DNA of 64,000 nucleotides from Nitrospirota bacterium (GCA_963721805.1 CAVRJY010000001.1:96001-160000); one strand, 5' to 3'. Positions 7,933 through 51,617 are shown, counted from the first letter of the stretch. Numbers and translations are program-made. The notes: generated by a model from the sequence alone, not told the origin.

Positions 7933-7951
7933 CTTTATCGTACGCCGGTGG

Positions 7952-8110: not shown

Positions 8111-8116
8111 GATGAG

Positions 8117-10867: not shown

Positions 10868-10970
10868 GGGTGGATACCACGGGTTGCGTTGTCATGTCGG
10901 GACAGTTTAACACTCATAGGCGGATGGTTGGAAGACCCCCGGAACCCCCTCCCCGGAACTGTTTCCCCTT

Positions 10971-11491: not shown

Positions 11492-11508
11492 CACCCTTTG
11501 GAGCGCTT

Positions 11509-13171: not shown

Positions 13172-13254
13172 GGCCTAATCATAGTCCGATGCGGGGCCGG
13201 GCGCAACGCGCAGAAATCTTGACTTCGGGGCGCGGGGCCGTGTTAAGCTTTCTG

Positions 13255-13605: not shown

Positions 13606-13652
13606 CCCTCACGCCGCCCCGGACTTACCCTAAAAATTAATCGGAGGGACTA

Positions 13653-15074: not shown

Positions 15075-15228
15075 GAAAAAGCCTCGAGTTCATCCCGGCC
15101 TGCCGCGCGGGGGGATGCCGCCCCTCCCCCCGCGCGTCAGGGCCGGCATTGCCCGCCCTGCCTCCGTTGATTTCATATGCTGCTATAATATGCCGATAAG
15201 TTATATAGCCAATAAGGAGGCTTGTTCT

Positions 15229-21245: not shown

Positions 21246-21432
21246 TTAATTAGAAATGAGCGCTAAGGCGCGAATAGTGAGAGGGGTCCGCGACCCCGCG
21301 AATATGAGCCTGGGGGCGCTGCCCCCCTGCCCGTGGCATCCCGCTTAATGAATATTTTACTAATAGTGTAAACTATTGCCCTATTCAGCCATATGGAGTG
21401 CTCGCAAAAATATTGACTCACTGGGGGAACGG

Positions 21433-34261: not shown

Positions 34262-35389
34262 TCATCTAGTCCCGATACGGTAGATCTTTCCGGATGAATA
34301 ATCAGCAACGTATATCTCCCCGCGTTCGTCAAGCCCGAACGTGCTGATGGCCAGGTGTGACTCCAGGAGCACCGCCGAGCGCCACTCGCCGCCCTCCCGC
34401 CTGAGCCCGCGTATCCGGCCGGAGCAGAAATCCCCGAAGAGGTAGATCCCATCAAGCGCGGGGAAGTCCTTCCCCGTGTATGCATACCCGCCCGTGACCG
34501 AGCAGTCCCCGGCCGAGTGGTCGTATGTCGTCACGGGCATCACGAGCCCTGTGCGGTCGCATGCCGGAGCGCCGAAGCAGCTCGCGCCCTCCATTATGTT
34601 CCAGCCGTAATTCGCCCCGGCAGCGCTTTTGTTCGATGGCTGGTAGTCGATCTCCTCGTATGTGTCCTGACCGACGTCCGCGATATAGAGCGCATCGCGG
34701 TCGAATGAGTACCTCCACGGGTTTCTGAGCCCTATGGCCCAGACCTCCGTGCCGTATGGGTTTCCGGGCGGGATGCCGTAAGGTTTCTTCCCGCCCTCTG
34801 TGTCTATGCGCAGGAGCTTGCCCAGGAGCACGCGCGGGTTCTGGCCGTTTCTGTGCGGGTCGCCTCCAGAGCCCCCATCCCCGATGCCGATATAAAGGTA
34901 TCCGTCCGGGCCGAAGACGATCTGCCCCCCGTTGTGGTTGCGGTATGGCTTGGCCTGGGTGAAGATCACCTCGCCGCTCGCCGGGTCCGCAAGGTTCAGA
35001 TCGCTGGCCGAGACTCTGTATCTAGCCACCACTACCGCGCCGTCCGAGGCGCGCGTATAGTCCACGTAGAAATACCGCTTCGACGCATACGAGGGAGGAA
35101 ACGCCAGCCCGAGCAGGCCCTGCTCAGCCCCCCGCGTCGCGATCAGCCCGGATACGTCCAAGAATGGGATAGGCCGCACCATGCCGTCTTTTATTATGTG
35201 CACCGTGCCCTTGCGCCCGACCACGAACAGCCGCCCGGAACCATCCCGCGCCGACTGTATATCGGTCGGAGAGCTAAGGCCGCTGGCATAGAGCGATATC
35301 TTTATCCCCGGCCAGCCCGCGCCCCACGCAAGCGCTCCGGATGCAAGCACCGCAACGATCGCGACGGCCCAAACGATGACCTTCTTCAT
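34262..35389 (-). CDS. PQQ-dependent sugar dehydrogenase (GSDH family), exported
   Basis: Signal peptide; EQGLLGLAF, NHNGG, FGPDGYLY, GLRNPWR. Confidence 0.9.
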   Translation of the reverse strand: MKKVIVWAVAIVAVLASGALAWGAGWPGIKISLYASGLSSPTDIQSARDGSGRLFVVGRKGTVHIIKDGMVRPIPFLDVSGLIATRGAEQGLLGLAFPPSYASKRYFYVDYTRASDGAVVVARYRVSASDLNLADPASGEVIFTQAKPYRNHNGGQIVFGPDGYLYIGIGDGGSGGDPHRNGQNPRVLLGKLLRIDTEGGKKPYGIPPGNPYGTEVWAIGLRNPWRYSFDRDALYIADVGQDTYEEIDYQPSNKSAAGANYGWNIMEGASCFGAPACDRTGLVMPVTTYDHSAGDCSVTGGYAYTGKDFPALDGIYLFGDFCSGRIRGLRREGGEWRSAVLLESHLAISTFGLDERGEIYVADYSSGKIYRIGTR

Positions 35390-35504
35390 CGCCCATTATA
35401 GGCCTCTTTGTGTCGAACGGCAAATACGATTTTTTAAAAAGGGAAAGGCGCCCGTGGCGCCCCTCACGCGCTAAGCCTTTGCCGGAGCCGATCCGCAGAG
35501 GGGC

Positions 35505-35572
35505 GGAACTGGCTCCTGGGAACTGGTTCCTAGGAACCAGTTCCTGGGAACCGGTTCCCATGGACGCGTTCC
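35505..35572. promoter_or_regulatory. Tandem palindromic GGAACYRGTTCC boxes with a 14-bp period upstream of the virion operon
   Basis: Copies at 35505, 35519, 35533 and 35547, plus a degenerate one at 35561. Confidence 0.7.
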
Positions 35573-35599
35573 GGCATGCCGTTTTAAGCTCGGTGCAGG

Positions 35600-35827
35600 A
35601 TGAAACGCGATAAGTCGATAGAGCTCACCCCCCGAAAGGCGGCGGCCCTTTTTCCGGTCACGGATGGGCAGCGCCCACCGGCCCGTTCATGGGCCGCCGC
35701 CCCCTCCCCGCAGGGCGAGGGCAATCAGGGGTTCGCCGCCCACCGTTGCTGCATTGAGCCGTCACTGGTCTGTCTCCCCCTTGCGGGCGACCCGATCTGC
35801 GACGCCTGTCTGGAGGGGACACTATGA
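35600..35827 (+). CDS. Hypothetical 75-aa protein with Cys-rich C-terminus
   Basis: ATGA overlap with the next gene; otherwise weak. Confidence 0.35.
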   Translation: MKRDKSIELTPRKAAALFPVTDGQRPPARSWAAAPSPQGEGNQGFAAHRCCIEPSLVCLPLAGDPICDACLEGTL

Positions 35828-36220
35828 TCCGCCTTCGCCGCATAGCCATGACCGATGATGTTTCGCTGGGTGTCCTGATCGGCGAGGCCGGCCTCCCGCT
35901 CGCGCTCACATTAGAGAGGCCCTGGCGCAACAACGCCCCTGAGGTCTCGTGCATACCGCCGGGCAGCTACACGGCCCGCCGCGTGACATCGCCGAAGTTC
36001 GGCGAGACGTTCGAGGTTACAGGCGTTCCGGGCCGCAGCCACATCCTCATGCACAAGGGCAACACCCCGGCCGATACCGAGGGATGCATATTGGTAGGGG
36101 CCCAGTGGGGCACGATAGCGGGTTGCCCGGCGGTGCTTGATGAGCAGCCAGGGCTACGGTGCGTTCATGACAGCGATGAGGGACAAACAGGAGTTTCAGC
36201 TCCTGATCGAAAACCAGTAA
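35824..36220 (+). pseudogene. DUF5675-family (L,D-transpeptidase-like) putative endolysin, apparently frameshifted near 36139
   Basis: TLERPW.NN...SCIP.G.Y...SPKFG...VPGRSHILMHKGN...DTEGCILVG; a family-like tail MSSQGYGAFMTAMRDKQEFQLLIENQ* lies in the +1 frame. Confidence 0.6.
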
Positions 36221-36253
36221 GGAGATGCATATGAAACAGGCAGGGACGCTCAT

Positions 36254-36562
36254 ATGATGGACGCAGAGACGTTGAGGCACGTGGCCGAGTGGGGCCCGGG
36301 GCTCCTGATCGGCGTGATGATACTGGCCGGGCTTTTCAGGCTCGCAGACCGCGTCGGGATGAGGATGGTCGCGGCCTCCGAGAGGCAGGCCGAGGCGCTT
36401 GCGGCGCAGGCCGAGGCGATGCAGGGCCTGACGACCTCGATCAGGGACTTCGTTACGCGGGACAACTCCGAGCACCGCGAGATGCTCGTGCTTTTGAGGT
36501 TCATCGCGCAGGAGCAGCAGCACTCACGCGAGCAGCAGGAGGAGGAGAAAGTTGAACACTGA
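36254..36562 (+). CDS. Holin-like single-TM coiled-coil protein
   Basis: One TM helix followed by a coiled coil; position after the lysin. Confidence 0.55.
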   Translation: MMDAETLRHVAEWGPGLLIGVMILAGLFRLADRVGMRMVAASERQAEALAAQAEAMQGLTTSIRDFVTRDNSEHREMLVLLRFIAQEQQHSREQQEEEKVEH

Positions 36563-36848
36563 GACCGCACGCAACAGGCGCATCCGCCACGCCCTGCTTC
36601 GGATACTGAAGTCCGAGTACCCCGGGGCGATAGACACCAAGGCACTGAGGTTCGCGCTCGACAACCTCGGCTATCCCATGCCGGGCCGGGTGCTCGGGGC
36701 GCACTTGGCGTACCTCAGCGAGGGCGGCTACGTCCGCGTCGAGCAGAAGGCGGGTTTCGGGTACAGGATCGAGTTTGCGTACCTGACCAAGGAGGGCTGG
36801 GACCTCCTCGACGGCCATATCGGCGAGCGCGGGGTGGACTCCGAATGA
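36552..36848 (+). CDS. Mu gp26-like winged-helix protein
   Basis: R..LLRIL...LAYLSEGGYV...AYLT.EG.DLLDG pattern; syntenic position before the terminase genes. Confidence 0.6.
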   Translation: MNTETARNRRIRHALLRILKSEYPGAIDTKALRFALDNLGYPMPGRVLGAHLAYLSEGGYVRVEQKAGFGYRIEFAYLTKEGWDLLDGHIGERGVDSE

Positions 36849-37093
36849 GCCTCCCGAGCGAGGAAAGCATGGTGCGGGCCCTCATGAGGCAAAAACGCGC
36901 TTATGAGCTGCACTTCAAGACCAAGTCGCCCGAGATCGACAACACGGCCAATACCGCGTACGTCGCGCTGATTAAGATGATCGTCGATATCGTGCGCAAA
37001 TCCAACGAGGCCGGCCCTGAAGGCCGCGACCCCGGCGAGGCCCGCCGCAGCGTGGACGAGGTCTTGAGGACCGAGTATGGGATCGAGCGATAA
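36845..37093 (+). CDS. Short protein in the small-terminase (Mu gp27-like) position
   Basis: Overlaps both neighbours; helical; ends EYGIER; only 82 aa. Confidence 0.5.
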   Translation: MSLPSEESMVRALMRQKRAYELHFKTKSPEIDNTANTAYVALIKMIVDIVRKSNEAGPEGRDPGEARRSVDEVLRTEYGIER

Positions 37094-38345
37094 GTTGATA
37101 CTCCTGCCCTACCAGCGCCGATGGGTCAACGACCGCTCCGCGATGAAGATATGGCTCGCCGCGCGCCAGATCGGCAAGTCCTTCGCCGTGGCGATGGAGG
37201 CCGTGGACGAGGCGCGCGCGGAGAAGTGCGACAACCTCATACTCTCGTCTTCCGAGCGGCAGAGCAAGGAGGTCATGAAGAAGGTCTCCTCGCACCTCCG
37301 CGTGCTGAATGTCTTAAGCGCCGACTCGCTCGACGCCAGCCGCGAAAACCGCGAGGAGGTCGAGCTCCTAAACGGCTCGCGCATCATCTCGCTTCCGGCC
37401 TCGCCGGATACGGTGCGCGGGTTTTCAGGCAACGTCTATCTGGACGAGTTCGCTTTTCATCAGGATTCGCGCGAGATATGGCGCGCGATGTACCCGACCG
37501 TGACGCGCGGCTACAAGGTGCGCATCACCTCGACCCCCAATGGCCGCCTCAATATGTTTTATGAGCTGTATAACGCGGATGCGCGGTTTTCGCGCCACCG
37601 CACGAACATACACGACGCCGTGGCCGACGGCCTGTGCGTCGATATTCCGCTTCTAAGAGACGGGATCGGAGACCCCCAGAGCTGGGCGCAGGAGTTCGAG
37701 TGTGAGTTCGTGGACGAGGCCACCGCGCTCATTACGCTCGATGAGATCGCCTCGTGTGAAGGGGACTGCGGGCAGCTAAAAGATACGACAGGTGAGCTAT
37801 ATCTGGGCGTCGATATCGGCCGCAGCCACGACCTTACGGTCATATGGATTTTAGAGCGCGTGGGCGACGTCCTCTGGACGCGCGGGGTGCGCGAGCTGCG
37901 CAATGCCTCATTCAGCTCTCAGCGCGAGACGCTGTTTTCGCTGATCGAATCCCCAGCCGTGAAGCGCTGTTGCATGGACTCCACCGGCATCGGGGCGCAG
38001 TTAAGCGAGGAGGCCCGCGAGCGGTTCGGCACGCGGGTAGAGCCTGTGCAGTTTACGCTCCAAAGCAAGGAGGACCTCGCCGTGACCGCGCGCCGGGCGT
38101 TTGAGGACCGCACCGTGCGCATCCCCCAGGACGCCACGATCCGGCGCGACATACACAGCGTCCGGAGGTATACGACCTCGGCCGGAAACGCCCGGTTCGA
38201 CGCCAGCCGCACGACGGAGCACGCCGACCGCTTCTGGGCGCTGGCCCTCGCGCTTCACGCCGCAAAGTCCCCGGCCTTGACTCAGCCCCAATACGAGCAG
38301 ATAAGCACGCGGCAGGCTGCTATGCACCGTGCTGGCTGCTGGTAA
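37077..38345 (+). CDS. Terminase large subunit (Mu gp28-like)
   Basis: LLPYQ, ARQIGKS, VYLDEFAF, ITSTPNG, LGVDIGR..D, HADRFWALALA. Confidence 0.93.
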   Translation: MGSSDKLILLPYQRRWVNDRSAMKIWLAARQIGKSFAVAMEAVDEARAEKCDNLILSSSERQSKEVMKKVSSHLRVLNVLSADSLDASRENREEVELLNGSRIISLPASPDTVRGFSGNVYLDEFAFHQDSREIWRAMYPTVTRGYKVRITSTPNGRLNMFYELYNADARFSRHRTNIHDAVADGLCVDIPLLRDGIGDPQSWAQEFECEFVDEATALITLDEIASCEGDCGQLKDTTGELYLGVDIGRSHDLTVIWILERVGDVLWTRGVRELRNASFSSQRETLFSLIESPAVKRCCMDSTGIGAQLSEEARERFGTRVEPVQFTLQSKEDLAVTARRAFEDRTVRIPQDATIRRDIHSVRRYTTSAGNARFDASRTTEHADRFWALALALHAAKSPALTQPQYEQISTRQAAMHRAGCW

Positions 38346-38424
38346 ATGCCGATGCAAATCATCGCTTCGCTCGATTTGCATCGGGGCTATAAGGCAAATC
38401 ACATCAGGATAAGGAGGTATTAAG

Positions 38425-39645
38425 ATGGCTGTTAAAGATTCATCAGGAAAGGGCCGGTCCGGCCCCCCGCCATTGGGCGGGGTGGTGGTGGCCCCGCATT
38501 TGGGCTGGCCGACGTACCCCTCGTCCGGGCTCACGCCCGAGCGCTTAAGCGCGATATTCCGCGAGGCCGACGCCGGGGACATCTCACGCCAGATCGAGCT
38601 TTACGAGGAGATGGAGGAAAAGGACGCGCATCTTGGCGCGGTGCTCCAGACTCGCAAGCTCGCTGTGGCCGGGCTTCAGTGGGAGGTCACCCCATCAGGC
38701 ACGAGCGAGGATGCGGCTATCTCAGCCGCACTCGTTAAGGACGCGCTTGCGCATGCTGCCGGGTTTGACGAGGCGATCCTCGCTCTAGTCGACGCCGTGG
38801 GCAAGGGTTTCTCTGCGGTCGAGCTTATCTGGCGAGCGGATGCTGGCCGCGTTGCGCTCAATGCGCTTCGGCCGGTAAGCCAGCGGAGTTTTTCCTTTCT
38901 CGCACCCGATGGCCTGCCCTCTGGCGAGCCGCGCCTTTTGACCGAGGCCAACCCGGTTCGCGGCGAGGCGCTCACGCCCTTTAAGTTCGCGGTTCACGCC
39001 AACATGTCCCGCACCTCATGCCCCCAGCGCGCCGGGGTGCTCAGGCCGTGCGCATGGATGTACCTGTTTAAAAATTACACGCTCAAGGACTGGCTGATCT
39101 TCAACGAGCGGTACGCGATGCCGATGCGCATTGGCAAGTTCGGCCCGTCCGCGTCCGAGGCCGACCGCCGCGTGCTCAGAAACGCGGTCTTCAACTTGGG
39201 CGCGGACGCCGCGGCCGTGATAAGCGAGGGCACGGTGATCGAGCTCCTGGAGAGCCCCGGCAAGGGCGGCTCGGCCGACCTCTACCAGAGGCTCGCCGAG
39301 TACTGCGACGCCGCGATCTCGAAGGCCGTCCTGGGCCAGACGCTAACGACCGAACAGACCGGCGGGACGTACGCCACCGCGCGAGTCCACGAGGGCGTGC
39401 GCGAGGACATCACCGCGGCCGACGCCCGCGCGCTCGAGCGCACGATAACGAGCCAGATCATCAGGCCGCTCGTGGAGTTCAACCTCGGCCCCGGCGCGCC
39501 GCTTCCCCGCTTCAGGTTCCTTATGGCGGAGGAAGAAGACCTAAAGACGCTGGCCGAGACCTACTCGACCTTAAGCGCGATGGGGGTCTCGATCCCTGAC
39601 GCCCACATCCGCGAGCGCTTCGGCATACCCGCAGGAGGCAACTAG
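38425..39645 (+). CDS. Portal protein (Mu gp29/DUF935)
   Basis: GLTPERL..I.READ.GD...Q.EL.EEMEEKD.H, DAVGKGFS, ISKAVLGQTLT. Confidence 0.92.
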   Translation: MAVKDSSGKGRSGPPPLGGVVVAPHLGWPTYPSSGLTPERLSAIFREADAGDISRQIELYEEMEEKDAHLGAVLQTRKLAVAGLQWEVTPSGTSEDAAISAALVKDALAHAAGFDEAILALVDAVGKGFSAVELIWRADAGRVALNALRPVSQRSFSFLAPDGLPSGEPRLLTEANPVRGEALTPFKFAVHANMSRTSCPQRAGVLRPCAWMYLFKNYTLKDWLIFNERYAMPMRIGKFGPSASEADRRVLRNAVFNLGADAAAVISEGTVIELLESPGKGGSADLYQRLAEYCDAAISKAVLGQTLTTEQTGGTYATARVHEGVREDITAADARALERTITSQIIRPLVEFNLGPGAPLPRFRFLMAEEEDLKTLAETYSTLSAMGVSIPDAHIRERFGIPAGGN

Positions 39646-39647
39646 AC

Positions 39648-40610
39648 ATGGACGAAACACTGGTAATGCGCTCTGCCGCGATCGAGGGCGCTCCGGCCGA
39701 GATCCAGGTGATCCCGTTTGGCGGCCACGAGACCACGCAGGGCAGCTTCGTGCTCGACGCCGAGGGGATCAGGCAGATCATCTCAGAGTTCGAGGCGAGA
39801 AAAAACGAGATGGTGATCGACTACGAGCACCAGACGCTCGGGGGCTCCGAGGCCCCGGCCGCCGGATGGATCAAGCGGCTTATAGATAAGGGTGCGGACG
39901 GCCTCTGGGCCTCGGTGCAGTGGACCCCGCGCGCGCTTCAGTACCTAAGGGGCCGCGAGTACCGCTACCTCTCGCCGGTGTTCATGAAGCGCATCGCTGA
40001 CGGCCGCGCGGTGCGCCTGATCAACGCCGCGCTCACAAACCAGCCAGCCATAGACGGCATGGTGCCGGTCGTAAACCGCGCCGCCGTGAACTCGCAAAAG
40101 GAAGGAGGAGGAAAGAAGATGGAAAAGATCATGGAAGCCCTCGGCCTTGATAAGGCTGCAGGGGAGGCGGAGGTCATCGCCGCAATAGGGGCGATGAAGT
40201 CACGCATCACGTCCGTGCTCGACTCTCTCGGGGTCGGGACGGACGCGACGGACCCGGAGCTTTCGGGCACCGTGGCCGCGATGAGACAGGCTTACGAGCA
40301 GCTGCCCGCGATAGCCGCGCGCCTGGCCGAGCTCGAGGCCGCGCTTGGCGGCAAAGAGTCCGCCGGGCTCGTCGAGCAGGCGATGGCCGAAGGCAAGCTC
40401 ACGCCCGCGCAGAAGGCGTGGGCCACGGACTATGCGGCCCGCGACACCGAAGGGTTCCGCGTATTCGTGGCCAAGGCCCCGGTGGTCGTCCCGGTGGCCG
40501 ACGCCCCGAGAGCCGGAGCAAGGAAGGTTCAGGCATTGGACGAGACCCAGCAAAGGGTAAACGCTCATCTCGGCATATCGGCCGAGGCATTCGGCCTTTA
40601 CGGCAAATAG
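39648..40610 (+). CDS. Mu-like prohead protease/scaffold (gpI)
   Basis: VIDYEHQT, APAAGWI, V.WTPRA, EYRYLSPVF, ALTNQPAIDGM, GKLTPAQ..WA. Confidence 0.92.
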   Translation: MDETLVMRSAAIEGAPAEIQVIPFGGHETTQGSFVLDAEGIRQIISEFEARKNEMVIDYEHQTLGGSEAPAAGWIKRLIDKGADGLWASVQWTPRALQYLRGREYRYLSPVFMKRIADGRAVRLINAALTNQPAIDGMVPVVNRAAVNSQKEGGGKKMEKIMEALGLDKAAGEAEVIAAIGAMKSRITSVLDSLGVGTDATDPELSGTVAAMRQAYEQLPAIAARLAELEAALGGKESAGLVEQAMAEGKLTPAQKAWATDYAARDTEGFRVFVAKAPVVVPVADAPRAGARKVQALDETQQRVNAHLGISAEAFGLYGK

Positions 40611-40622
40611 GAGGATCGGCAC

Positions 40623-41030
40623 ATGGCACTCACTTCAGACAGGAACACGCCTCGCCGTGACGGCGAGCTCGTAACTCTCCCGGTCGCGGCCGCAAAACTC
40701 ATCTACGCCGGGTCGCTGGTGGCCAGGGATTCAAGCGGCAACGCCACCCCGGGTGCGGCCGCAACCACGCTTTTGGGAGCCGGCCGCGCCGAGGCGCGTG
40801 CGGATAACTCCGGCGGCTCGGCCGGGGATATCACGGTCGACGTCCGCAAGGGCGTCTTCAGGTTCGGCAACTCCGCCTCCGCGGACGCGATCACGCGCGC
40901 GGACATCGGCGCCAGCTGCTACATCGCCGACGACCAGACGGTCGCCAAGACCAGCGGATCGAGCACGCGCTCGGTAGCCGGAACAGTCTTCGACGTGGAC
41001 TCAGACGGCGTCTGGGTCAAGTTCGAGTAA
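40623..41030 (+). CDS. Capsid decoration/cement-like protein
   Basis: ALT.DRNTP, IYAGSLV, CYIADDQTV, DGVWV; lies between protease and capsid genes. Confidence 0.7.
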   Translation: MALTSDRNTPRRDGELVTLPVAAAKLIYAGSLVARDSSGNATPGAAATTLLGAGRAEARADNSGGSAGDITVDVRKGVFRFGNSASADAITRADIGASCYIADDQTVAKTSGSSTRSVAGTVFDVDSDGVWVKFE

Positions 41031-41043
41031 GGAAAGGACAGAT

Positions 41044-41922
41044 ATGATAATCAACCAGTCAGCGCTTCAGGCCCTGTACAAGGGCTTCAGGACGATATTC
41101 AACGAGTCGTTCGACGCGGTAAAGCCGCAGTACGAGGGCGTGGCGATGGTCGTGCCCTCGACCGTGCGCGAGGAGACCTACGCATGGCTCGGCGCGTTCC
41201 CGTCGATGAGGGAATGGATCGGCGAGCGGCAGGTCAGGAACCTCGACCTGCAGAGCTACAGCATCCGCAACAAGGACTGGGAGGTCACGATCGAGGTCGA
41301 CCGCAACGACCTCGAGGACGACTCGGTAGGCATCTACCGCCCGATCATAGCCGAGCTCGGCCGCTCGGCCGCGATGCACCCCGACGCGCTCGTATTCGGG
41401 TTAATGGGCACCGGGTTTTCCACCGCGTGCTACGACGGGCAGTACTTCTTCGACTCCGCCCACCCGGTAGGCTCCGCCACGGTGAGCAACACCGGCGGGG
41501 GCTCGGGCTCGGCCTGGTATCTGCTCGATACGACGCGCTCTCTGAAGCCTTTCATCTTCCAGTCGAGGCGCGACGTGGAGTTCGTCTCGAAGGACCGGCC
41601 GGACGACGAGCAGGTCTTCATGCGCAAGAAGTACGTCTATGGCGTCGACAGGCGCGACAACGCCGGGTTCGGGCTCTGGCAGCTGGCGTACGGATCGAAG
41701 CAGACGCTGGACGCGGCGAGCTACTCGGCCGCACGCGCCGCGATGATGGCGTACACGGACAGCGAGGGCAAGCCGCTCGGGATCACGCCCAGCGTGCTCG
41801 TCGTGCCGCCTTCTTTGGAGGGCGCTGCGCGCGCGATCGTGACGGCCGAGCGCGACGCCTCGGGCGAGACGAACCCCTGGTTCAATACCGCCGGGCTCCT
41901 CGTGAGCCCGTGGCTTGGGTAG
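41044..41922 (+). CDS. Mu-like major capsid protein (gpT)
   Basis: YAWLG.FP.MREWIGER, CYDGQYFFD.AHPV, WYLLDT.R.LKP.IFQ.R, GFGLWQLAYGS. Confidence 0.93.
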   Translation: MIINQSALQALYKGFRTIFNESFDAVKPQYEGVAMVVPSTVREETYAWLGAFPSMREWIGERQVRNLDLQSYSIRNKDWEVTIEVDRNDLEDDSVGIYRPIIAELGRSAAMHPDALVFGLMGTGFSTACYDGQYFFDSAHPVGSATVSNTGGGSGSAWYLLDTTRSLKPFIFQSRRDVEFVSKDRPDDEQVFMRKKYVYGVDRRDNAGFGLWQLAYGSKQTLDAASYSAARAAMMAYTDSEGKPLGITPSVLVVPPSLEGAARAIVTAERDASGETNPWFNTAGLLVSPWLG

Positions 41923-41928
41923 ACCCCG

Positions 41929-42360
41929 ATGCCCTACAGCACCCTTGATGAGATCGTAAAGCTCCTGCCTGAGGCAACGCTTATCGAGCTTACGGACGAC
42001 ACGGGCGCCGGTACGGTCGACGGGGCGGTCGTCGCCGAGGCCATAGCCCAGGCCGACGCGGAGATCGACTCTTACTGTGGGGGGCGCTACGGCGTCCCCC
42101 TCAGCCCCGTCCCCGAGATCGCAAAAAAGCTCTCGGCGGACATCGCGCTCTATCACCTGTATTCGCGCCGCGTGGCCCAGATGCCGGAGGCCCGCAAGGA
42201 CCGCTACAAAGACGCGGTGCGCCTGCTTGAGGGCATCGCCAAAGGCGCGGTCACGCTGGGCGCCGATACGCCCGCTTCATCGGGGCAGCCGGGCACGGCC
42301 GAGACGAACAGGCCGGACGACGAAAACACATTCACCCGCGACTCGATGCTCGGGTTCTAA
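41929..42360 (+). CDS. Head-tail adaptor (Mu gp36/DUF1320)
   Basis: LIELTD, A.AEID.Y..GRY.VPL, DIALYHLY, YKDAVR.LE.IA.G. Confidence 0.88.
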   Translation: MPYSTLDEIVKLLPEATLIELTDDTGAGTVDGAVVAEAIAQADAEIDSYCGGRYGVPLSPVPEIAKKLSADIALYHLYSRRVAQMPEARKDRYKDAVRLLEGIAKGAVTLGADTPASSGQPGTAETNRPDDENTFTRDSMLGF

Positions 42361-42419
42361 GAAAGAAGGAGACGCTCACAATGCCTGTAAACGACGCATA
42401 TAAGGCCGGGGCATAGCGC

Positions 42420-44924: not shown

Positions 44925-44940
44925 CGAGGAGAGACAAGAA

Positions 44941-45984
44941 ATGGGCATAAGCGCATCAGGGACCGAGCTTCGGGCGGCGGCCGCGAGGGCCGCGATATGG
45001 GGCACGGCGGTTCAGTGCGGCGCGGCGGACGGGGTGCTCGTCCTTCCGTCGGAGATCAAGAAGACCCGCGAGGCCCTCGCGGAGGACTCGCTCGGCACGC
45101 TGTTTTCGAATTCGTCGGACGCAGGTGCGGTAAAGGTCGAGGGCGAGCTCAAGGCCTACCTGCGCTACGACGGGCTGGACCTCCTGCTGGCGCTCGCGAT
45201 GGGCGCAACCGGAGGGGCTCCGGTGCGGCAGGGGACGAGCGCGGCCTACGGCCAGACGCTTAAGTTAAACGGCTCGCTCGACGGCCTGTTTGCCACGCTC
45301 GCGATCAACAACGGCGTGAACGTCGACGAGTTTGCGTCGGTGAAGCTCAGCGGGTTTCAGATCAAGGGCGAGGCCGGAAAGCCTGTCGAGGCCACGTTCA
45401 GCCTGATCGCGAACGACCGCACGACCGGCTCGACCGTCAACACCACAGCGACGTTCAGCGCGGTCACGGATTTTGAGACATCAAACCGCACCCTGTTCAG
45501 CCAGGCCGTGTTCCGTTGCAACGCCCGCTTTGGCGCGGCGCTCGCCGATACCGACAGGATATACCCCTCGGCCTTCACGCTTAAGTTCGTCAGAAAGCTC
45601 CTTGGCGTGCGCACGCTGGGCTCGGGAGCGGATACGGTCGACGAGCCTTCAAACGACGGCCTGCCGGACTGCACGCTATCGCTGACGTTCCCGCGCTACA
45701 CCGGGGCCACGCACTTCGCGGACTGGGACGCGGCCGCGCCCAAGAAGCTCGACCTCGCGTTTACGGGCGCGGTGATCGAGGGCTCATACCGGCGCGCGCT
45801 GAGGTTTTCGTTCCCGAACCTCGCGTACAAGGGCGTCGAGCTCCCGATCAGGCGCGGCCTGCTCGAGCACCCGGTCGAATTTATATGCCTCGGCACGGAG
45901 CTGGCCTCCTCCGGGATGGACGGGATCATGGAGCCCTTCGGGCTTGAGCTCGTAAACCGCCAAAGCGCGGACGTGCTCGGATAG
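44941..45984 (+). CDS. Tail tube (major tail) protein
   Basis: Syntenic position after the terminator; beta-rich; GAGGAG RBS before ATG 44941; no sheath gene present. Confidence 0.65.
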   Translation: MGISASGTELRAAAARAAIWGTAVQCGAADGVLVLPSEIKKTREALAEDSLGTLFSNSSDAGAVKVEGELKAYLRYDGLDLLLALAMGATGGAPVRQGTSAAYGQTLKLNGSLDGLFATLAINNGVNVDEFASVKLSGFQIKGEAGKPVEATFSLIANDRTTGSTVNTTATFSAVTDFETSNRTLFSQAVFRCNARFGAALADTDRIYPSAFTLKFVRKLLGVRTLGSGADTVDEPSNDGLPDCTLSLTFPRYTGATHFADWDAAAPKKLDLAFTGAVIEGSYRRALRFSFPNLAYKGVELPIRRGLLEHPVEFICLGTELASSGMDGIMEPFGLELVNRQSADVLG

Positions 45985-45988
45985 GGCG

Positions 45989-46405
45989 ATGGATATCGAG
46001 GCCCTGGAGAGCGACGACTATGCGGTGTGGGTAAGGTTCATGGACGCCGAGGTGCTCGTGCGCCACGTCCCGGCCGGCGAGCTCCTGTCTATCCGGGAGC
46101 GCAGCCTGAGGCGGGCGTGGGACATCTCGAGCGGGGGCCGGCCGGCCGAGGGCATCGATGCGGCCGAGGCTGCCAGGCTGCTGGGCCGGGCGGCGGTGCG
46201 CGGCTGGCGCGGCCTGAGCATGCGCGGCGAGGACTACCCCTACTCGCCCGAGCGGTGCGACTTCCTTATGGCGCGCTGGGCCGAGTTCGGGCGGTTCGTA
46301 AACGAGGCCGCGACGAGCCTTGCGCGCCTCGCTGAAGCACAGCGGAGGGACGAGTCAAAAAACTCCTCTCTCACATCCGGGCCCGGCTCGACTTCCCGGG
46401 TGTGA
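45989..46405 (+). CDS. Tail assembly chaperone (G-like)
   Basis: AVRGWRGL...PYSPE; ends with the slippery S-K-N codons. Confidence 0.75.
   Translation: MDIEALESDDYAVWVRFMDAEVLVRHVPAGELLSIRERSLRRAWDISSGGRPAEGIDAAEAARLLGRAAVRGWRGLSMRGEDYPYSPERCDFLMARWAEFGRFVNEAATSLARLAEAQRRDESKNSSLTSGPGSTSRV
46357..46363 (+). other. Programmed -1 frameshift site A AAA AAC
   Basis: In-frame X XXY YYZ heptamer; the -1 frame is open to the stop at 46644. Confidence 0.75.
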
Positions 46406-46644
46406 GCTGCGCTTCATGCCGGGAGATAGAGGCATTGGATCAGGTCAGGCCGGACTGCGAGAGCGGCGGCTGCCCGATCCCTCGGGCAACGGGGCGCGGC
46501 ATGCGGGCGGTCGCCCTCAGGTCGATGATAAGGCGGCTTAAGCGGATAGTCCCTGCGGGCGAGGTGCTCCGCCTGATGGGCGCGACGGCGCGTGACCTCG
46601 AGTTGCTGGCCCTGATCGAGGACGAGATAGGAGGCAGGGGATGA
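46402..46644 (+). CDS. Tail chaperone T-like extension (CxxC...C-x4-C)
   Basis: Lies in the -1 frame of the previous ORF. Confidence 0.65.
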   Translation: MSCASCREIEALDQVRPDCESGGCPIPRATGRGMRAVALRSMIRRLKRIVPAGEVLRLMGATARDLELLALIEDEIGGRG

Positions 46645-47048
46645 TAAACATCGAAAGCGACATGGACAAGCTCGCGGCCGCGATCGGCACCGGCGCGTTG
46701 GGCGCGATAGTCGAGAGTGTGACCGAAGAGGCAAAGGCGCTCGCCCCTGGCCGCAGCGGCACCCTTAGGGACTCGATAGAGGGATTCATAACCGGCGCTG
46801 GGTCGGGCTCGATAGACGCGGCTGCGCCCTATGCCTCGTTCGTGCACGACGGCACAGGGCTTTACGGGCCGTCCGGTGCGGCATATGCCGTAAGCGCGCG
46901 CATTAAAAAGGCCCTGTGCTGGCCGGGTGCGAGCCACCCCGTGCGCACGGTGACCGTGCGCGGCATCGAGGGCAGGGAGTTCATCACCCGGGCGCTCGAG
47001 GGCCCGGCACCGGATCAGGCAGTGCAAGGGCTGATCGACAGACTATAG
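46641..47048 (+). CDS. HK97 gp10-like tail-completion/neck protein
   Basis: AP.RSGTLRDSI, PYASFVHDGTG, KKALCW, F..RAL. Confidence 0.8.
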   Translation: MINIESDMDKLAAAIGTGALGAIVESVTEEAKALAPGRSGTLRDSIEGFITGAGSGSIDAAAPYASFVHDGTGLYGPSGAAYAVSARIKKALCWPGASHPVRTVTVRGIEGREFITRALEGPAPDQAVQGLIDRL

Positions 47049-47061
47049 AGGAGGCAACCAG

Positions 47062-47595
47062 ATGGCTGAAGTGGTTATAAACATCAAGGCCGAGGACGCC
47101 GCGACCCCGGTGATCGAGGCGATCTCGGCGACGCTCGACGCGCTCGGCGCCGGGCTCGCGGCGATGGACAGCGGGCTTAGCAAGACCCTCACGCTCGACG
47201 TCTCGGGCGCGCTTTACGGTGCGGCCGAGGTAGCCTCGGCCATCGGCGCGATACCGGACGTGACCGAGAAGAGCGTGGTCATCGAGTACCAGACGATGGC
47301 CTCTCCGGTGAGGCCGTTTACCGAGGGCATCGCGTACATAAAGGACAAGATGGACTCGCTCCCGACCGAGGGCTCATACACCGTGAAGTATGCGACCGAT
47401 GGCTCACCGGCGCAGGGGCAACCGAATGTGCCGGCGCAGCCGGGGCCGGTCACGTTCTCGCCGGTGATCAACGTCAACGCCCAGGCGGGCGGGGCTGCCG
47501 CGGATGCCGCCTCGTTGGCGCGCTCGCTCGATGAGGAGCTTGCGCGGATGTGGCGGACCAACCGCTCGGAACTTAGGAGGGCAGCCACCCTATGA
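47062..47595 (+). CDS. Miniature tape-measure-like protein (177 aa)
   Basis: TMP-like start EVVINIKAEDAAT and end FSPVINVNA...LARSLDEEL; occupies the TMP position. Confidence 0.55.
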   Translation: MAEVVINIKAEDAATPVIEAISATLDALGAGLAAMDSGLSKTLTLDVSGALYGAAEVASAIGAIPDVTEKSVVIEYQTMASPVRPFTEGIAYIKDKMDSLPTEGSYTVKYATDGSPAQGQPNVPAQPGPVTFSPVINVNAQAGGAAADAASLARSLDEELARMWRTNRSELRRAATL

Positions 47596-48332
47596 GCGCG
47601 ATAATCACGGCATGGCAAAACCTGCTCGAAAGCTCAACCGTTACGCTTACGGCCGGCGCGGAGGACCCGGACTACCCGCTATACCGCCTCTGCGACCGCA
47701 ATACCGGGCGCGCGTTTCGCTCAAGCGCAGCCGGAACGCTCGAGATCTCGATAGACCAGGGCGCATCGGGCGCGATGGCCGCAGACCGCCTCCTGATCCC
47801 CTCCGGCCACAACCTTGGCGGTATGACGCTCGACCTGCTCCACTCAGGCGACGGTGTCGCATATATCTCCGCCACGCCGCAGTGGACCGGCGCTGACGGA
47901 GTTATCGAGATGTCATGGGCGCCGCTCACCGCGCGGTACTGGAAGTTCAGGGTCACAGCGCCATCGGTGGCGCCCTCGCTGGGCGAACTGTTCCTGAGCA
48001 GCTCGTACGAGTGGGAGCGCCAGCCAGCGCGGCCCTCCGGCGCGATGGACACGGAGTTTAACGCGCTAAGCGATACGACCTCCTCGGGCGAGGACAGATT
48101 CCTGGTGATGGGCCAGCCCAAGAGGCGGCGCACCTACCGGGTGCCGCGCTGCGGCGCGGCGATGCGCGATGAGATCGAGGCGCTCTATGGCGCATGGGCC
48201 GGGGCATATCCGTTTTGGATGCGGGACCACGAGGGCTCCTGGATATTCGGGCGGATCGTCTCGCCGCCCCAGATAGCGGAGCAGGGGCCCGGAGCATGGG
48301 GCTTCTCGCTCGACTTCAGGGAGGTCTTATGA
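47592..48332 (+). CDS. Distal-tail-like protein with a discoidin/galactose-binding-like domain
   Basis: ISIDQG...DRLLI..HNL...ARYWKFRV...LGELFL; follows the TMP. Confidence 0.55.
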   Translation: MSAIITAWQNLLESSTVTLTAGAEDPDYPLYRLCDRNTGRAFRSSAAGTLEISIDQGASGAMAADRLLIPSGHNLGGMTLDLLHSGDGVAYISATPQWTGADGVIEMSWAPLTARYWKFRVTAPSVAPSLGELFLSSSYEWERQPARPSGAMDTEFNALSDTTSSGEDRFLVMGQPKRRRTYRVPRCGAAMRDEIEALYGAWAGAYPFWMRDHEGSWIFGRIVSPPQIAEQGPGAWGFSLDFREVL

Positions 48333-48757
48333 ACGTGCTCTCCCGTGTCCGCCCGGTCTATCTCGTCAAGATTACCCTTCAGGGCTCCGGCCAGACGCTG
48401 TACCTCTCGGACCGGAACGTGACTGTGGGCGGGCAGGAGTACGAGGACTATATCTCCGCGGTCACGACCCCGGCCGAGGAGGCCAGGCGGCCAACCAGCG
48501 AATCTTTAAACGCGCCGCTTTCGATCGAGTTTCGAAACGAGCCCTGGCGCGGGTTCAGCCGGCTGATCGAGGCCGGGGCCGAGCACCCCTTTGAGGGCGG
48601 CCGCTGCACGCTCAGCGAGGCGTACATCGACGACGCGGGGATGTCGGGCGAACCCGTGGCGCTCTTTACCGGCACGCTCGACGCCCCCGCTGAGATCGAC
48701 TTGCGGGGTTTTAGTTGCGCGGTCTCCGCGCTCGATTATGCCGCTGACAACAGATAA
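48329..48757 (+). CDS. Tail hub/baseplate N-terminal-like protein (142 aa)
   Basis: PVYLVKI...TLYLSDRNV...YEDYI...LFTG; ATGA overlap and GGAGG RBS. Confidence 0.55.
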   Translation: MNVLSRVRPVYLVKITLQGSGQTLYLSDRNVTVGGQEYEDYISAVTTPAEEARRPTSESLNAPLSIEFRNEPWRGFSRLIEAGAEHPFEGGRCTLSEAYIDDAGMSGEPVALFTGTLDAPAEIDLRGFSCAVSALDYAADNR

Positions 48758-48797
48758 GGGATAGGGGCCACAGGCCCCCAAGGAGGAGCAGGAAAAA

Positions 48798-49250
48798 ATG
48801 GGCATAGCATTTGACCACGTGCAGTACGTATCGGACGTCCGGCTGATGCTTGGCGAGTCGACCTCGACGATCACGCTGGCCGCCCCGTTTACGGACAAGG
48901 AGTTCTACCGCTCGGAGATCGACCCCGGATTCGGCGGGGAGATAAGCTTTATCGACGCGGACCTGTATTTCGACCACTACTCGAGCCTCACGCAGAACGT
49001 CACATGGCGCTGGCAGATCAGGGGCAAGGGCCAGGCCGCCTGGACCGACCTCAATACGCCAAAGACCGAGAGCTGGGCCAGCCAGGCCCAGTCGCGCCTC
49101 CGCGTGATCGTCGAGGCCTCCGCCCTTGACGTCAATACGGCCGTGCCGTTTGAGATCCGCATGCTCGCGACCGCGGCCACGGCGGCCACGGTCTATATCG
49201 TGATCGGGACGTATACGCCCTCCATCCGCGTGCTGGGTACGAGCGCATGA
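48798..49250 (+). CDS. Hypothetical beta-rich virion protein
   Basis: Strong RBS; ATGA overlap with the next gene. Confidence 0.6.
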   Translation: MGIAFDHVQYVSDVRLMLGESTSTITLAAPFTDKEFYRSEIDPGFGGEISFIDADLYFDHYSSLTQNVTWRWQIRGKGQAAWTDLNTPKTESWASQAQSRLRVIVEASALDVNTAVPFEIRMLATAATAATVYIVIGTYTPSIRVLGTSA

Positions 49251-51382
49251 TGCCCGCACCGCTTTCGCGCTCGCTGTATCCCGCGCTCGATCCGGCATCG
49301 GCCGGTGAATACCCGCCGGTCGGGTACGGGAGTGTCGACGGGGTCCCTGCGCCATGCATCGTATCGGGCGCGGCGATGCGGCTCGCCTCCGGGATCGGCG
49401 CGGCCGAGACCTCACTTGAGGTCGATGACGCCCCGGCGCTCCCCTCGCCGCCGTTTACGGTGCAACTGGCAGGGGAGCGGATGCTCGTGGCTTCGGTTAC
49501 GGGCAATACACTAGGCGGGCTCACCCGCGGGGCGGATGGCACGACGGCCTCGGCGCACCCGGCGGGGCGCAGGGTGTTTGAGCTGCGGCCGGAGTACGTA
49601 TATCTGATAAGCCCCGAGCCGATAGCCGCGATACGCGGCGTCGTGGTCGACGGCGTGGCGCAGCAGTCGGGCTTTAGCGCATACACGGGCCGCCCGGGCG
49701 ACGAGCACCCGGACTGGCCGGGCATGGCGGTGGTCGCGTTCGAGGCACAGCTCAGCGCGTCGGCCCAGCGCAATATCTCTGCCGCATCGACCTGCTCGGT
49801 GGACGCAACGATGCTTGAGGCCTCGCACCGCGAGCTCATGGCCTCTGGTGGCGCGGCCCCGGTTTTGATATCAGGGAAACGCGCTCGCCCGGCGTGGGTC
49901 GCATTTACAGGCTCGGGCCCGCTCACGTCTCAGGCGTACTGCGCGTCCGTCCATAATACCGGCGCGTCCGATGCGGTCGTGCGCGCGTTAGTCAAGGTCA
50001 GCGCGACTGACGAGGTACTCGCGACAGAGTGCGTGCTTGTCCAGGCATCCGCGGCGGTGGCGGTCGGGCTCTCGCACGACGGCGGGCCGTGGGAGACCTG
50101 CTTCATGCTGTTCGCTGGCGCTGGCGCATCCACACTGGAGATTAGCGGGATCAAGAAGACCGTTACGGCCGTAAACCCGGCCGAGGGCGACAAGAGCTCG
50201 TCGTATCTGCCTGCGCCTTCTATGCTGTCGTACCGCGGCCTCGGGATCGAACGCACCGCGACGCTCAAGCCCAAGGGCAAGCGGCTGGCATGGGCCGCGT
50301 ACAGCGCGGACTCATTCGGGCCGGTTCTCTGGCAGACCCACCGCGCCGCTGTAGCTAACACCGGCGCGACGGACTCCGTAGTGCGGCTGATCGCATCGGC
50401 CCCAACTGGCGAATGCGCGGCCATGGCCGACTTTACCGTGAGAGCCGGGGATGCCACCACGCTTGAACTCACGCACCCGGGCGGGGGCTGGGACACGATG
50501 AGCAGGGTTGCGGTGCAAAGCGGGATGCTTAGAGTAGATGCGCTCTCAAAGGAGGTCAGGTACGTCACCGGGACCGACGGCCCCTCGGCGGGGTATAGCT
50601 CCACAGCGCGCGCTGTCATAGGCGATGAGGTCACGGTCGACGCCGACTGGTGCTGCGACGAGACTGGCGCGGTGATCGAACGGCCCGACAAAATTATGCG
50701 CCACTTTTTGGTCGAGCGCATGGGGTTTGCGGATACGGACATCGACAGCGCCTCCTTCGCCGCGGCCGACGCGGCGTACGCGGGCTACGTAAGCGGGGGC
50801 TACCGCTTCGGGTTCGTGATAAACGATAAGGTCACGCCGTCCGGGTTCGTGCGCTCACTGGCCGCACAGTGCAGGTCTGTGCTCAGATATGCGCGCGGGC
50901 TCTGGCGGCTCGACGCGGTGCCATCCGCGGCCCCTGCGCCGGTGCGCACGATATCGGCGGGCGAGCTTGCCGGAGAGGGCGCGATGTTCCGGTTTAAGCG
51001 CGTGCCTCTTGAGGATATGGGCAACAGCCTTCGTGCATATTACGGCGCTGTCTACTCAAAGGGCGGCGGCTGGTCGTCCATAGCCTCGGTCAATGACGCG
51101 GGCTCGATAGAAAGGCTCGGTCTAATCACGAGAGAGTTCAGGTTCCCGGCGATACGCGATAAGTCCACCGCAGAGGACGTGCTCGGCCTCATGCTCCTTG
51201 AGCGTGCGGCCTCGCTCCTGATCGTCAATTTCACGGTATTCTACGAACACTTCGACCTGAATGTCGGCGATACGATCTCGATAGACAACGAGCTTTATAA
51301 CGGCGCGCTGTTCTTCATCGAACGCATCGAAAGGCCGGACTCATTCAGGGCGAAAATTACAGCTCGCCAGTGGTGGGGATGA
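49247..51382 (+). CDS. Tail tip/baseplate hub protein
   Basis: PPVGYG.V, LTRGADGT.A..H.AG, IDSASF, SIERLG, LNVGD.I C-terminal tail-protein pattern; internal duplicated domain. Confidence 0.65.
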   Translation: MMPAPLSRSLYPALDPASAGEYPPVGYGSVDGVPAPCIVSGAAMRLASGIGAAETSLEVDDAPALPSPPFTVQLAGERMLVASVTGNTLGGLTRGADGTTASAHPAGRRVFELRPEYVYLISPEPIAAIRGVVVDGVAQQSGFSAYTGRPGDEHPDWPGMAVVAFEAQLSASAQRNISAASTCSVDATMLEASHRELMASGGAAPVLISGKRARPAWVAFTGSGPLTSQAYCASVHNTGASDAVVRALVKVSATDEVLATECVLVQASAAVAVGLSHDGGPWETCFMLFAGAGASTLEISGIKKTVTAVNPAEGDKSSSYLPAPSMLSYRGLGIERTATLKPKGKRLAWAAYSADSFGPVLWQTHRAAVANTGATDSVVRLIASAPTGECAAMADFTVRAGDATTLELTHPGGGWDTMSRVAVQSGMLRVDALSKEVRYVTGTDGPSAGYSSTARAVIGDEVTVDADWCCDETGAVIERPDKIMRHFLVERMGFADTDIDSASFAAADAAYAGYVSGGYRFGFVINDKVTPSGFVRSLAAQCRSVLRYARGLWRLDAVPSAAPAPVRTISAGELAGEGAMFRFKRVPLEDMGNSLRAYYGAVYSKGGGWSSIASVNDAGSIERLGLITREFRFPAIRDKSTAEDVLGLMLLERAASLLIVNFTVFYEHFDLNVGDTISIDNELYNGALFFIERIERPDSFRAKITARQWWG

Positions 51383-51441
51383 GGGGCCGGGTGGCCCCAT
51401 TCCCCATTCGCGGGGCAAGCGGCCCCGCTCACTTTCAATTA

Positions 51442-51602
51442 ATGCCGTTGACCGTTCGCACGATTATGCATCAGAAATTTAAAGCGCGAGAAATCGTGTC
51501 AGACTAGGAACCGGGTGAAAAACGACCGGAGGCGTATATGGACATACGTCGAGGATCGTTTTTCGGACGGTGACAACGTATCACGCGAGTTTCGCGCGCT
51601 TT
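51442..51602 (+). repeat. Hairpin element family A, copy 7 (core 51481-51602)
   Basis: Same termini; inner stem GAAAAACGA/TCGTTTTTC; centre CGTAT/ATACG. Confidence 0.85.
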
Positions 51603-51617
51603 GAAGAGGATTACAGG

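Follow-up and report, generated by a model that had tools for sequence, protein, structure and literature searches.

The question raised by the locus described here is whether a compact group of phage-type genes in a Nitrospirota chromosome is a virus, the remnant of a virus, or a particle locus that has been taken over by its host in the manner of a gene transfer agent (GTA). The locus lies in a stretch of 64,000 nucleotides from a Nitrospirota bacterium (GCA_963721805.1, CAVRJY010000001.1:96001-160000), hereafter the window, whose positions are counted from its first letter. The genome of the window, designated G000, is an assembly of 2.78 Mb in 9 contigs with a completeness of 94%, in which the window corresponds to positions 96,001-160,000 of contig C1 (G000:C1:96,001-160,000). 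It was compared with ten other genomes of the same Nitrospirota family, all of the relatives being draft metagenome-assembled genomes (MAGs).

The gene content and its distribution in the family suggest, with somewhat better than even chances, that the cluster is the late half of a Mu-like transposable siphophage, inherited vertically since its early genes were lost in or before the ancestor of the family, and that it constitutes a GTA-like viriform of Mu-type origin. The early functions that would have been lost are the transposase, the MuB-type ATPase and other early genes. The locus is probably an anciently domesticated, Mu-derived particle locus, for which a GTA-like role is probable, and it is a strong candidate for a new kind of GTA. 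An earlier note on this DNA had already suggested a host-domesticated lineage distinct from the GTA of Rhodobacter capsulatus (RcGTA), and this is supported by the presence of related clusters in 9/10 relatives, by co-divergence with the host, by purifying selection and by head genes of Mu type.

Composition of the cluster

The cluster is composed of 21 tightly packed open reading frames (ORFs), all on the + strand between positions 35,600 and 51,382, as determined by ORF calling and by Pfam and PHROGs searches, and it encodes functions for lysis and packaging, together with a head of Mu type and a tail of siphovirus type to which five tail-tip ORFs belong. The ~16-kb single-strand head-tail-lysis operon between host genes that the earlier note had described was recovered over this interval, and the compact ORFs with ATGA-type overlaps were found again as 4-nt overlaps in six gene pairs. 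The start that had been placed at 35,505 was not retained, this position belonging to a palindrome array linked to insertion sequences (IS) and lying outside the operon. The cluster and its two boundary repeats are made up as follows.

35,505-35,572 (no strand): array of the palindrome GGAACnnGTTCC with a 14-bp period, four overlapping matches against 0 expected, at the left junction
35,600-35,827 (+): o75, small Cys-rich protein, whose C-terminal ~25 residues are kept at the head of the relatives' clusters
35,824-36,234 (+): DUF5675 protein in the endolysin slot (PF18925, E 1e-23)
36,254-36,562 (+): o102, which combines an N-terminal membrane helix with a charged, coiled tail, 47-52% identical to relatives
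36,552-36,848 (+): o98, conserved small phage protein (phrog_436), 57-67% identical to relatives
36,845-37,093 (+): o82, 82 aa, whose gene overlaps the start of TerL; six family members aligned, 15 invariant columns
37,077-38,345 (+): TerL, large terminase subunit (Terminase_6N and 6C)
38,425-39,645 (+): Mu-type portal, 406 aa (PF06074, E 6e-111)
39,648-40,610 (+): Mu gpI-type head protease/scaffold (PF10123, E 2e-77)
40,623-41,030 (+): virion structural protein (vsp) of phrog_1731 (E 6e-52)
41,044-41,922 (+): Mu gpT-type major capsid protein (PF10124, E 2e-125), a single copy in G000
41,929-42,360 (+): Mu gp36-type head-tail adaptor (PF07030, E 1e-37)
42,420-44,924 (+): 834-aa fusion protein with lectin-like N-terminal domains, DVRxGxxY repeats and a C-terminal gp37/tail-terminator domain
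44,902-45,984 (+): tail tube-like protein (PF18906, E 6e-14), 43% identical to the tube of provirus G041
45,989-46,644 (+): pair of tail assembly chaperones, o138 (45,989-46,405) and o80 (46,402-46,644), phrog_313, in an order kept in relatives
46,641-47,048 (+): HK97-gp10-like tail-completion/neck protein (PF04883, phrog_5)
47,062-47,595 (+): o177, Ala-rich, at the position of the tape measure (RcGTA_tape, E 0.002, 17.8 bits against a cut-off of 220)
47,592-48,332 (+): o246, tail-tip protein with a CBM32/discoidin-like sugar-binding half (model pLDDT 83.9; CBM32 E 1.5e-6)
48,194-48,757 (+): o187, N-terminal part of a tail-tip gene that is one gene of ~800-840 aa in G005 and G001
48,798-49,250 (+): o150, an ORF found in G000 only, between the two parts of the tail-tip gene, with a 4-nt overlap with o711
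49,247-51,382 (+): o711, 711 aa, central tail-tip/host-contact protein (Phage-tail_3, PF13550, E 3e-6), the last gene of the cluster
51,435-51,605 (no strand): one copy of SRE, an abundant structured repeat of ~170 bp with 105 genome hits of at least 60 nt, occupying the interval from the cluster to rng

The cluster is flanked by host genes, namely those for a Leu/Phe-tRNA transferase and a GSDH-family dehydrogenase on the left, and for RNase G (rng) and a radical-SAM/DUF2344 protein on the right. No tRNA gene was found in the window with ARAGORN, and no att-like direct repeats bracketing the cluster were found among the 20 largest of at least 60 direct-repeat families at 34,900-52,100.

Distribution, descent and selection

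The capsid gene was found in 8/10 of the other family genomes at 68-78% identity and in 3/3 genomes of one other family at 54% identity, and in none of 27 genomes from eleven further families of the order; its nearest relatives are labelled as Nitrospirota/Thermodesulfovibrionales MAGs. The Mu portal family is present in 9/10 family genomes, G007 (91% complete) being the only one without it. In G003, the whole cluster is present, but unrelated ORFs of 173 and 312 aa without a Pfam match stand in place of vsp and the gpT capsid gene (L219, G003:C52, 7817-9336), the Mu protease and the rest of the cluster being retained, which looks like a capsid-gene swap within a conserved cluster.

In a capsid tree of 72 rows, the ten family copies form one clade (support of 98 in the Shimodaira-Hasegawa-like approximate likelihood ratio test, SH-aLRT), with no viral contig or other taxon inside, and the capsids labelled as Desulfobaccales form a clade apart from it. 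Furthermore, the best of 596 capsid matches in IMG/VR is just 60% identical. A host tree built from RNase G and the radical-SAM protein contains the grouping (G005,(G001,G004,G009)) with supports of 99/99 and 100/100, to which a tree of RNase G alone adds the pair G007 and G008 at 100/99. The cluster tree, inferred from a concatenate of seven genes (TerL, portal, protease, vsp, capsid, gp36 and o246), contains (G005,(G001,G004,G009)) at 99/99 and 87/98, and the pair G008 and G010 at 100/100, G010 belonging to the same genus as G007 of the host-tree pair. Each well-supported clade of the host tree is repeated in the cluster tree; by hand count, both shared clades occur in 9 of the 945 unrooted trees that are possible for the seven shared taxa. 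The end branches of the cluster and host trees are also of similar length (0.42 against 0.45 for G000; 0.20 against 0.20 for G005).

In G008-G010, the pair with the lowest divergence, the ratio of nonsynonymous to synonymous substitution rates (dN/dS) is 0.17 for both the capsid gene (dS 0.53) and gp36, with values of 0.15 for vsp and 0.21 for the protease gene; for the other pairs, synonymous sites are saturated and the ratio is uninformative. The two comparisons proposed in the earlier note, cluster trees against the host tree and dN/dS, thus gave congruent trees and values of 0.15-0.21. Vertical inheritance, co-divergence with the host and purifying selection, which are expected of a GTA, were therefore all found.

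The expectation that the cluster would occupy the same GSDH-rng locus in relatives failed: neither GSDH nor the cluster lies beside rng in any of the eight relatives examined. The pair formed by the radical-SAM gene and rng is kept in 8/8 of them, and the gene downstream of rng differs in each. Because gene order is scrambled generally at this genus-level distance, around rng too, synteny is uninformative for descent. Host genes nevertheless abut the same cluster ends in G000, G003, G005 and G001. Indeed, the homologue of o711 is followed by a PilZ gene in G005 and by a cytochrome c gene in G001, and the lysis genes are preceded by an Exo_endo_phos gene in G003 and, in G004, by NYN/PAP2 genes and then a few small ORFs including Mor.

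A neighbouring family offers a contrast. The genome G024 carries a Mu head fragment of 6.5 kb, from portal to gp37 with two further ORFs and without terminase or tail (L025, G024:C1:344000-363999, 6330-15343), which is bracketed by two IS3-family copies of equal predicted length and near-identical Pfam scores, in the manner of a composite transposon. This fragment is a true decayed remnant, unlike the cluster of the family studied here.

Transposition and replication functions

No match to Mu-transpos_C was found in G000 or in any of the ten other family genomes, while the same search was positive in 2 of 41 genomes (G013 and G026). DDE_2 gave no match in the G000 genome either, a weak test in that the control of the same search gave no match anywhere; the Mu-transpos_C search is the stronger test because it detected its domain elsewhere.

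Among full phage-like relatives that share the tail type, the nearest is an IMG/VR provirus of 37 kb, designated G041, that is 98% complete according to CheckV. Its genes include those for a CI repressor, an AAA_22 MuB-like ATPase, Mor and a 601-aa protein weakly matched by rve, as well as a 203-aa Mu gp27 small terminase and a 941-aa TMP_3 tape measure. When 20 of its proteins, 17 of them from the early half, were searched against G000 with tblastn, Mor was matched, and otherwise just two weak AAA_22 matches of 20-23% identity were obtained. The latter, on contigs C3 and C6, were rejected as a hidden MuB, their neighbours being chemotaxis, GGDEF and TPR host genes. Since these searches found only Mor, the early module is not hidden elsewhere in the assembly.

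Furthermore, no transposase, integrase or replication gene was found in or beside any family cluster with flanks. The MuA-type DDE transposase and the MuB-type ATPase of a functional Mu-like prophage are accordingly lacking, and the absence of own replication, integration and transposition genes that is expected of a GTA was observed in a genome 94% complete. The earlier note had reported no MuA/MuB, repressor or Mor; the lack of a transposase and replication module stands for the whole genome, whereas a repressor/Cro/Mor module was found ~190 kb away.

Regulatory module

In G000, this module lies on the same contig as the cluster (G000:C1:321457-322837; L126:9457-10975). A Mor-family gene of 129 aa (G000:C1:321,457-321,846) stands beside a 64-aa XRE/Cro-like gene, and divergently from both are found a 215-aa CI-like repressor with HTH_3 and Peptidase_S24 domains and then a tRNA-Ala(cgc). 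The possibility that the S24 protein is the LexA of the host was rejected, a canonical LexA (LexA_DNA_bind and S24) being encoded at C1:1,025,830-1,026,396.

The repressor is full-length in 8/10 relatives, at 51-67% identity, while G007 has only a 40-residue piece and G010 none; the match in G001 holds one in-frame TAA. In all eight relatives with a full-length repressor, the Mor gene adjoins it. The switch directly adjoins the cluster in G005 and G008, where the order is repressor, then divergently (Cro), a 109-aa ORF, Mor, lysis genes and packaging genes, which is the order of Mu minus A, B and the other early genes. In G001, G002, G003, G004 and G006, Mor is followed by genes of the opposite strand that do not belong to the cluster. 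The linkage of a repressor and Mor/C to late genes in one mobile unit is hence lacking in G000 and present in G005 and G008. It can be argued that, since both parts have remained intact after the split and genomes with a split arrangement occur across the tree, control acts in trans and selection operates at the level of the host.

Head, packaging, lysis and tail genes

A head module of Mu type (portal gp29, gpI, gpT, gp36 and gp37) is present, without gpF and gp27. Indeed, gpF (PF04233) gave no match in the Pfam scan of the window, in agreement with the earlier note as to both the missing gpF and the 406-aa portal, and the Phage_Mu_Gp27 small terminase gave no Pfam match in the cluster. The phrog_1731 protein is possibly a decoration or scaffold-like head protein. 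TerL is the sole Terminase_6N match in the G000 genome. From the position of its gene and its conservation, o82 is a candidate short small-terminase subunit, and o98, which has a winged-helix look by eye only, may be a DNA-recognition partner of the terminase. In known GTAs, TerS is described as short, helical and without a DNA-binding domain in passages of PMC6854486 and PMC11841831, and in RcGTA a short TerS-like gene lies directly upstream of TerL according to the former.

Among the lysis genes, the DUF5675 product is probably a YkuD-fold L,D-peptidase, to judge from its structural model (predicted local distance difference test, pLDDT, 87.5), for which the best fold matches are Pgp2, Csd6 and L,D-transpeptidases, all weak (E 0.017-0.7); H77, G87 and C88 are invariant in the DUF5675 alignment. 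This slot holds DUF5675 in G000 and G008 and an M15 peptidase in G003, G004, G005 and G006. No family match was found for o75 in Pfam, PHROGs or NCBIfam, nor for o102 in Pfam or PHROGs. The holin-like gene of the earlier note could not be confirmed, o75 having no membrane segment and o102 one; from its sequence features, o102 may be regarded as a candidate holin or spanin-like lysis protein.

In the 834-aa fusion protein, ~14 DVRxGxxY repeats are present, six of them as 28-aa tandem units. The gp37/terminator domain has lost its start codon and is joined, in frame over 834 codons, to a repeat protein of 690 aa. The terminator gene that had been announced is therefore present as a domain, limited to the last ~145 residues of this ORF. 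The slot between gp36 and gp37 is occupied in relatives by variable separate ORFs that are sugar-binding (F5/8 type C, BppU_N).

No long tape measure is present in the cluster, o177 being the sole candidate. It is 48% identical over its full length to its G005 homologue and may tentatively be considered a very short tape measure; the gene with the look of a tape measure in the earlier note thus rests on a match of 17.8 bits against a cut-off of 220. The o246 model matches unnamed phage proteins end to end, with a template modelling (TM) score of up to 0.78, and the protein has 38 sequence homologues, each at least 46% identical, some of them on long contigs of up to 274 kb; close relatives at 75-83% identity exist for o246 and for the DUF5675 protein. 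For o187, the ATG at 48,329, overlapping the stop codon of o246, is the probable true start. No homologue of o150 was found in the locus of any relative. PDB sequence searches with the DUF5675 protein, o246 and o711 gave nothing useful.

In brief, the full set of genes for a tailed-phage-like particle and its release that is expected of a GTA is present, with the gene in the lysin slot frameshifted and the tape measure a weak candidate.

Repeats at the cluster boundaries

The genome of G000 contains 23 GGAACnnGTTCC arrays. Ten of the 22 arrays outside the cluster boundary lie 56-132 bp from a 344-aa ORF, and the two of these ten ORFs that were scanned are both rve/HTH_32 DDE, IS481-like transposases. 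The array may be either the end of the IS or its target. Moreover, 9/23 arrays are found within ~110-510 bp of an SRE repeat. A role of the array at the left junction as an operator was rejected, the array being a dispersed repeat that adjoins IS481-like transposase genes. The cluster thus sits between an IS-type array and an SRE, two kinds of repeat that elsewhere lie a few hundred bases apart, and these junction repeats fit an IS-linked rearrangement that parted the operon from its switch.

Proposed function and alternative explanations

A bolder proposal, which we hold to be a serious possibility a little short of an even chance, is that the family carries an independently evolved, Mu-derived GTA with a split "genome", in which the CI/Cro/Mor switch would fire the distant late operon in trans and for which headful packaging from the chromosome would have been a pre-adaptation. 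The terminase of Mu natively packages by the headful from integrated copies. In the mechanism proposed for the GTA-like locus, DNA damage or a like signal would inactivate the S24-type repressor, whose cleavage would allow Cro and Mor to be expressed, the latter acting in trans to turn on the late operon. Mu-type heads would then be filled by the headful from the chromosome by TerL and the short TerS-like protein, perhaps with o98; short tails with sugar-binding tip and neck proteins would join the heads, and the YkuD-like lysin would free the particles, which would deliver host DNA to kin.

Several observations weigh against a domesticated GTA-like locus. A head of standard Mu size would hold the whole 16-kb cluster, contrary to the limited capacity of a classical GTA, although one headful cannot carry all of the encoding genes, at any head size, because the two loci are ~190 kb apart. 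The sole candidate regulators found form a phage-derived CI-like/Cro/Mor module that is present family-wide, pointing to an apparent phage-type control and not to known host regulators. The cluster lies at a different locus in every genome examined. The family clusters are mosaic, with variation in the lysin type, the gp36-gp37 slot and the tail-tip genes; those of G001 (L018) and G009 (L020) lack gp37, the tube, the chaperones and the gp10-like gene, the homologue of o246 directly following gp36, and may represent a tube-less, short-tailed variant of the particle. G006 holds two diverged cluster copies (contigs C152, C274 and C284), whose capsids are 78% identical and sister in the trees, which could reflect a duplication or two strains in one bin. 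This mosaicism, the capsid swap and the two copies of G006 are more phage-like than the pattern of RcGTA. The GC content of the cluster, 65.2% against 60.4 +/- 3.0% for the 16-kb windows of the genome, is in the top percentile, and its tetranucleotide distance is at the 95th percentile of genome windows; the host-like composition claimed in the earlier note is true of GC3 (GC content at third codon positions), which is typical across the cluster genes except for the capsid gene (0.915), and not of these two measures. Finally, the copy of G000 is blemished. The DUF5675 gene is out of frame over its final ~30 codons owing to a 1-nt insertion near 36,139, and its conserved C-terminus continues in the +1 frame as far as 36,219; the terminator is fused and startless; the GGAACnnGTTCC array is a solo copy without transposase at the promoter side of the operon; and no sigma-70-like promoter was detected ahead of the operon. 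This copy may be impaired and not functional in this species.

These blemishes would be accounted for if the cluster of G000 were a decaying, defective remnant with a broken lysin, cut from its switch by an IS-linked rearrangement, an explanation that we consider unlikely but still credible. The solo array on the left, the SRE on the right, the lack of a sigma-70-like promoter and the switch ~190 kb off all agree with it, as do the DUF5675 frameshift, the fused gp37 domain and the tail-tip gene, a single ORF in G005 and G001 that is split in G000 by a unique 150-aa ORF. All other ORFs, however, align end to end with those of relatives and the six 4-nt overlaps are kept; the fusion is open over 834 codons, one of the G006 copies also has o246 next to o187, and the switch is likewise unlinked in at least five other genomes with intact clusters. 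The frameshift itself may stem from an indel in the assembly: 61 comparisons of host genes showed four frameshift-like breaks, three of them on contig C9, and the metA/HTS gene beside Mor is also split over two frames. The earlier picture of a tidy copy without decay accordingly applies to most ORFs, which are intact, and is qualified by the possible lysin frameshift and the gene fusion.

The variable location, the mosaicism, the two copies in G006 and the high GC content could instead point to a still mobile virus or helper-dependent element, with replication or transposition provided in trans or by unannotated small ORFs, that spreads horizontally in the family; in G041, moreover, the tail type is shared by a full phage-like relative. 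We regard this as very improbable, given that clusters with flanks have no transposase, integrase or replication gene in or beside them, that in G000 the switch lies apart from the late genes on the same contig, and that cluster and host trees are congruent, with host-like branch lengths and no viral contig in the capsid clade; the differing loci say little where the order of host genes round rng is scrambled too. Domestication for another purpose, as a PBSX-like killer or another particle of benefit to the host (adhesion, DNA release, biofilm lysis) in which DNA is packaged incidentally, would have left the same distribution, trees and selection as a GTA-like locus. An Xre/CI-type S24 repressor with lysis genes recalls the SOS-inducible PBSX, and variable lectin-like and CBM32-like surface domains suit target binding as well as DNA delivery. 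Against this, selection has maintained the terminase, the portal and the entire head module family-wide, which argues that filled heads matter, and the tail is non-contractile and short, unlike those of known killer particles; we consider a purpose other than transfer distinctly unlikely.

If the particles of this GTA-like locus do move host DNA, they would represent a new, independent origin of GTAs and a mechanism of gene exchange in an uncultured, sulfur-cycling lineage. The family would then also offer a natural series from virus to host organelle, with a contiguous or a split switch, a long or a short tape measure, and a tail with or without a tube. The locus also provides genomic criteria for finding similar loci, namely co-phylogeny, the same cluster ends abutting host genes, and the loss of gp27 and MuA/B. 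Few GTA lineages are known, and they were discovered by chance according to passages of PMC11841831 and PMC6854486; no paper on a Mu-derived or Nitrospirota GTA came up in literature searches on GTAs.

Comparison with known systems

Like the RcGTA type of Alphaproteobacteria (Rhodobacter capsulatus), the cluster is a head-tail cluster of ~15-16 kb without replication or integration genes, with a very short tape-measure candidate and a Phage-tail_3 tip protein. It differs in its head genes, which are non-homologous and of Mu gpT, gpI and portal type (the Pfam matches being to Mu families only), in the presence of lysis genes inside the cluster, in the host phylum and in a locus whose synteny is not conserved. 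Among the GTA models of NCBIfam, none was matched besides RcGTA_tape, far below its cut-off, so that homology with RcGTA was not found. RcGTA is controlled by CtrA, GafA and quorum sensing, unlike the presumed phage-type CI/Cro/Mor control of the cluster. The RcGTA type is described as co-evolving vertically with its hosts in PMC6854486 and PMC10883770, and RcGTA as having further loci elsewhere in the genome in PMC5026251.

The nearest Mu-like transposable siphophages are presumably those of the B3/D3112 type. Provirus G041 shares with the cluster the order Mor, lysis, packaging, portal, protease, capsid, gp36, gp37, tube, chaperones and tip, with identities of 57% for the capsid, 68% for vsp, 43% for the tube, 42% for the chaperone and only 28% for TerL. 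Its 601-aa protein with the weak rve match, AAA_22 ATPase, gp27 and 941-aa tape measure are lacking in the window and in the family.

PBSX of Bacillus subtilis is likewise a chromosomally fixed late cluster with lysis genes and an Xre/CI-type repressor, and it is inducible, is not self-propagating and packages host DNA, traits in which a likeness is presumed for the present cluster. PBSX differs by its contractile tail, by the lack of a Mu-type head, by a linked regulator and by particles that kill and do not transfer DNA. Capsid-forming satellites of the cf-PICI type have an integrase, replication genes and their own capsid and packaging genes, and no tail genes; the cluster, in contrast, has tail genes and neither integrase nor replication genes. 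VSH-1 (BhGTA) of Brachyspira, which belongs to another host phylum, offers a broader parallel, being described in titles cited by PMC11841831 as a prophage-like GTA that has a divided genome and genes for head, tail and lysis.

Other genes of the window

Two paralogous genes for signal-peptide proteins (21,376-22,266 and 22,528-23,154, + strand) have N-terminal halves that are 62% identical, one of the proteins bearing collagen repeats and the other a phage tail-collar domain. These collagen-like/tail-collar genes at 21-23 kb were considered as unlinked fibre genes and rejected, no homologues being present in any locus retrieved, cluster loci included. A parA-parB pair is encoded at 17,681-19,274 (+ strand). 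A complete MmeI-type restriction-modification fusion gene with all five MmeI domains lies in a low-GC stretch (8117-10,867, - strand). Two adjacent STAND/AAA ATPase genes, one of them with MarR-like and many TPR domains, are also found at low GC (965-4520, - strand) and are possibly a defence island.

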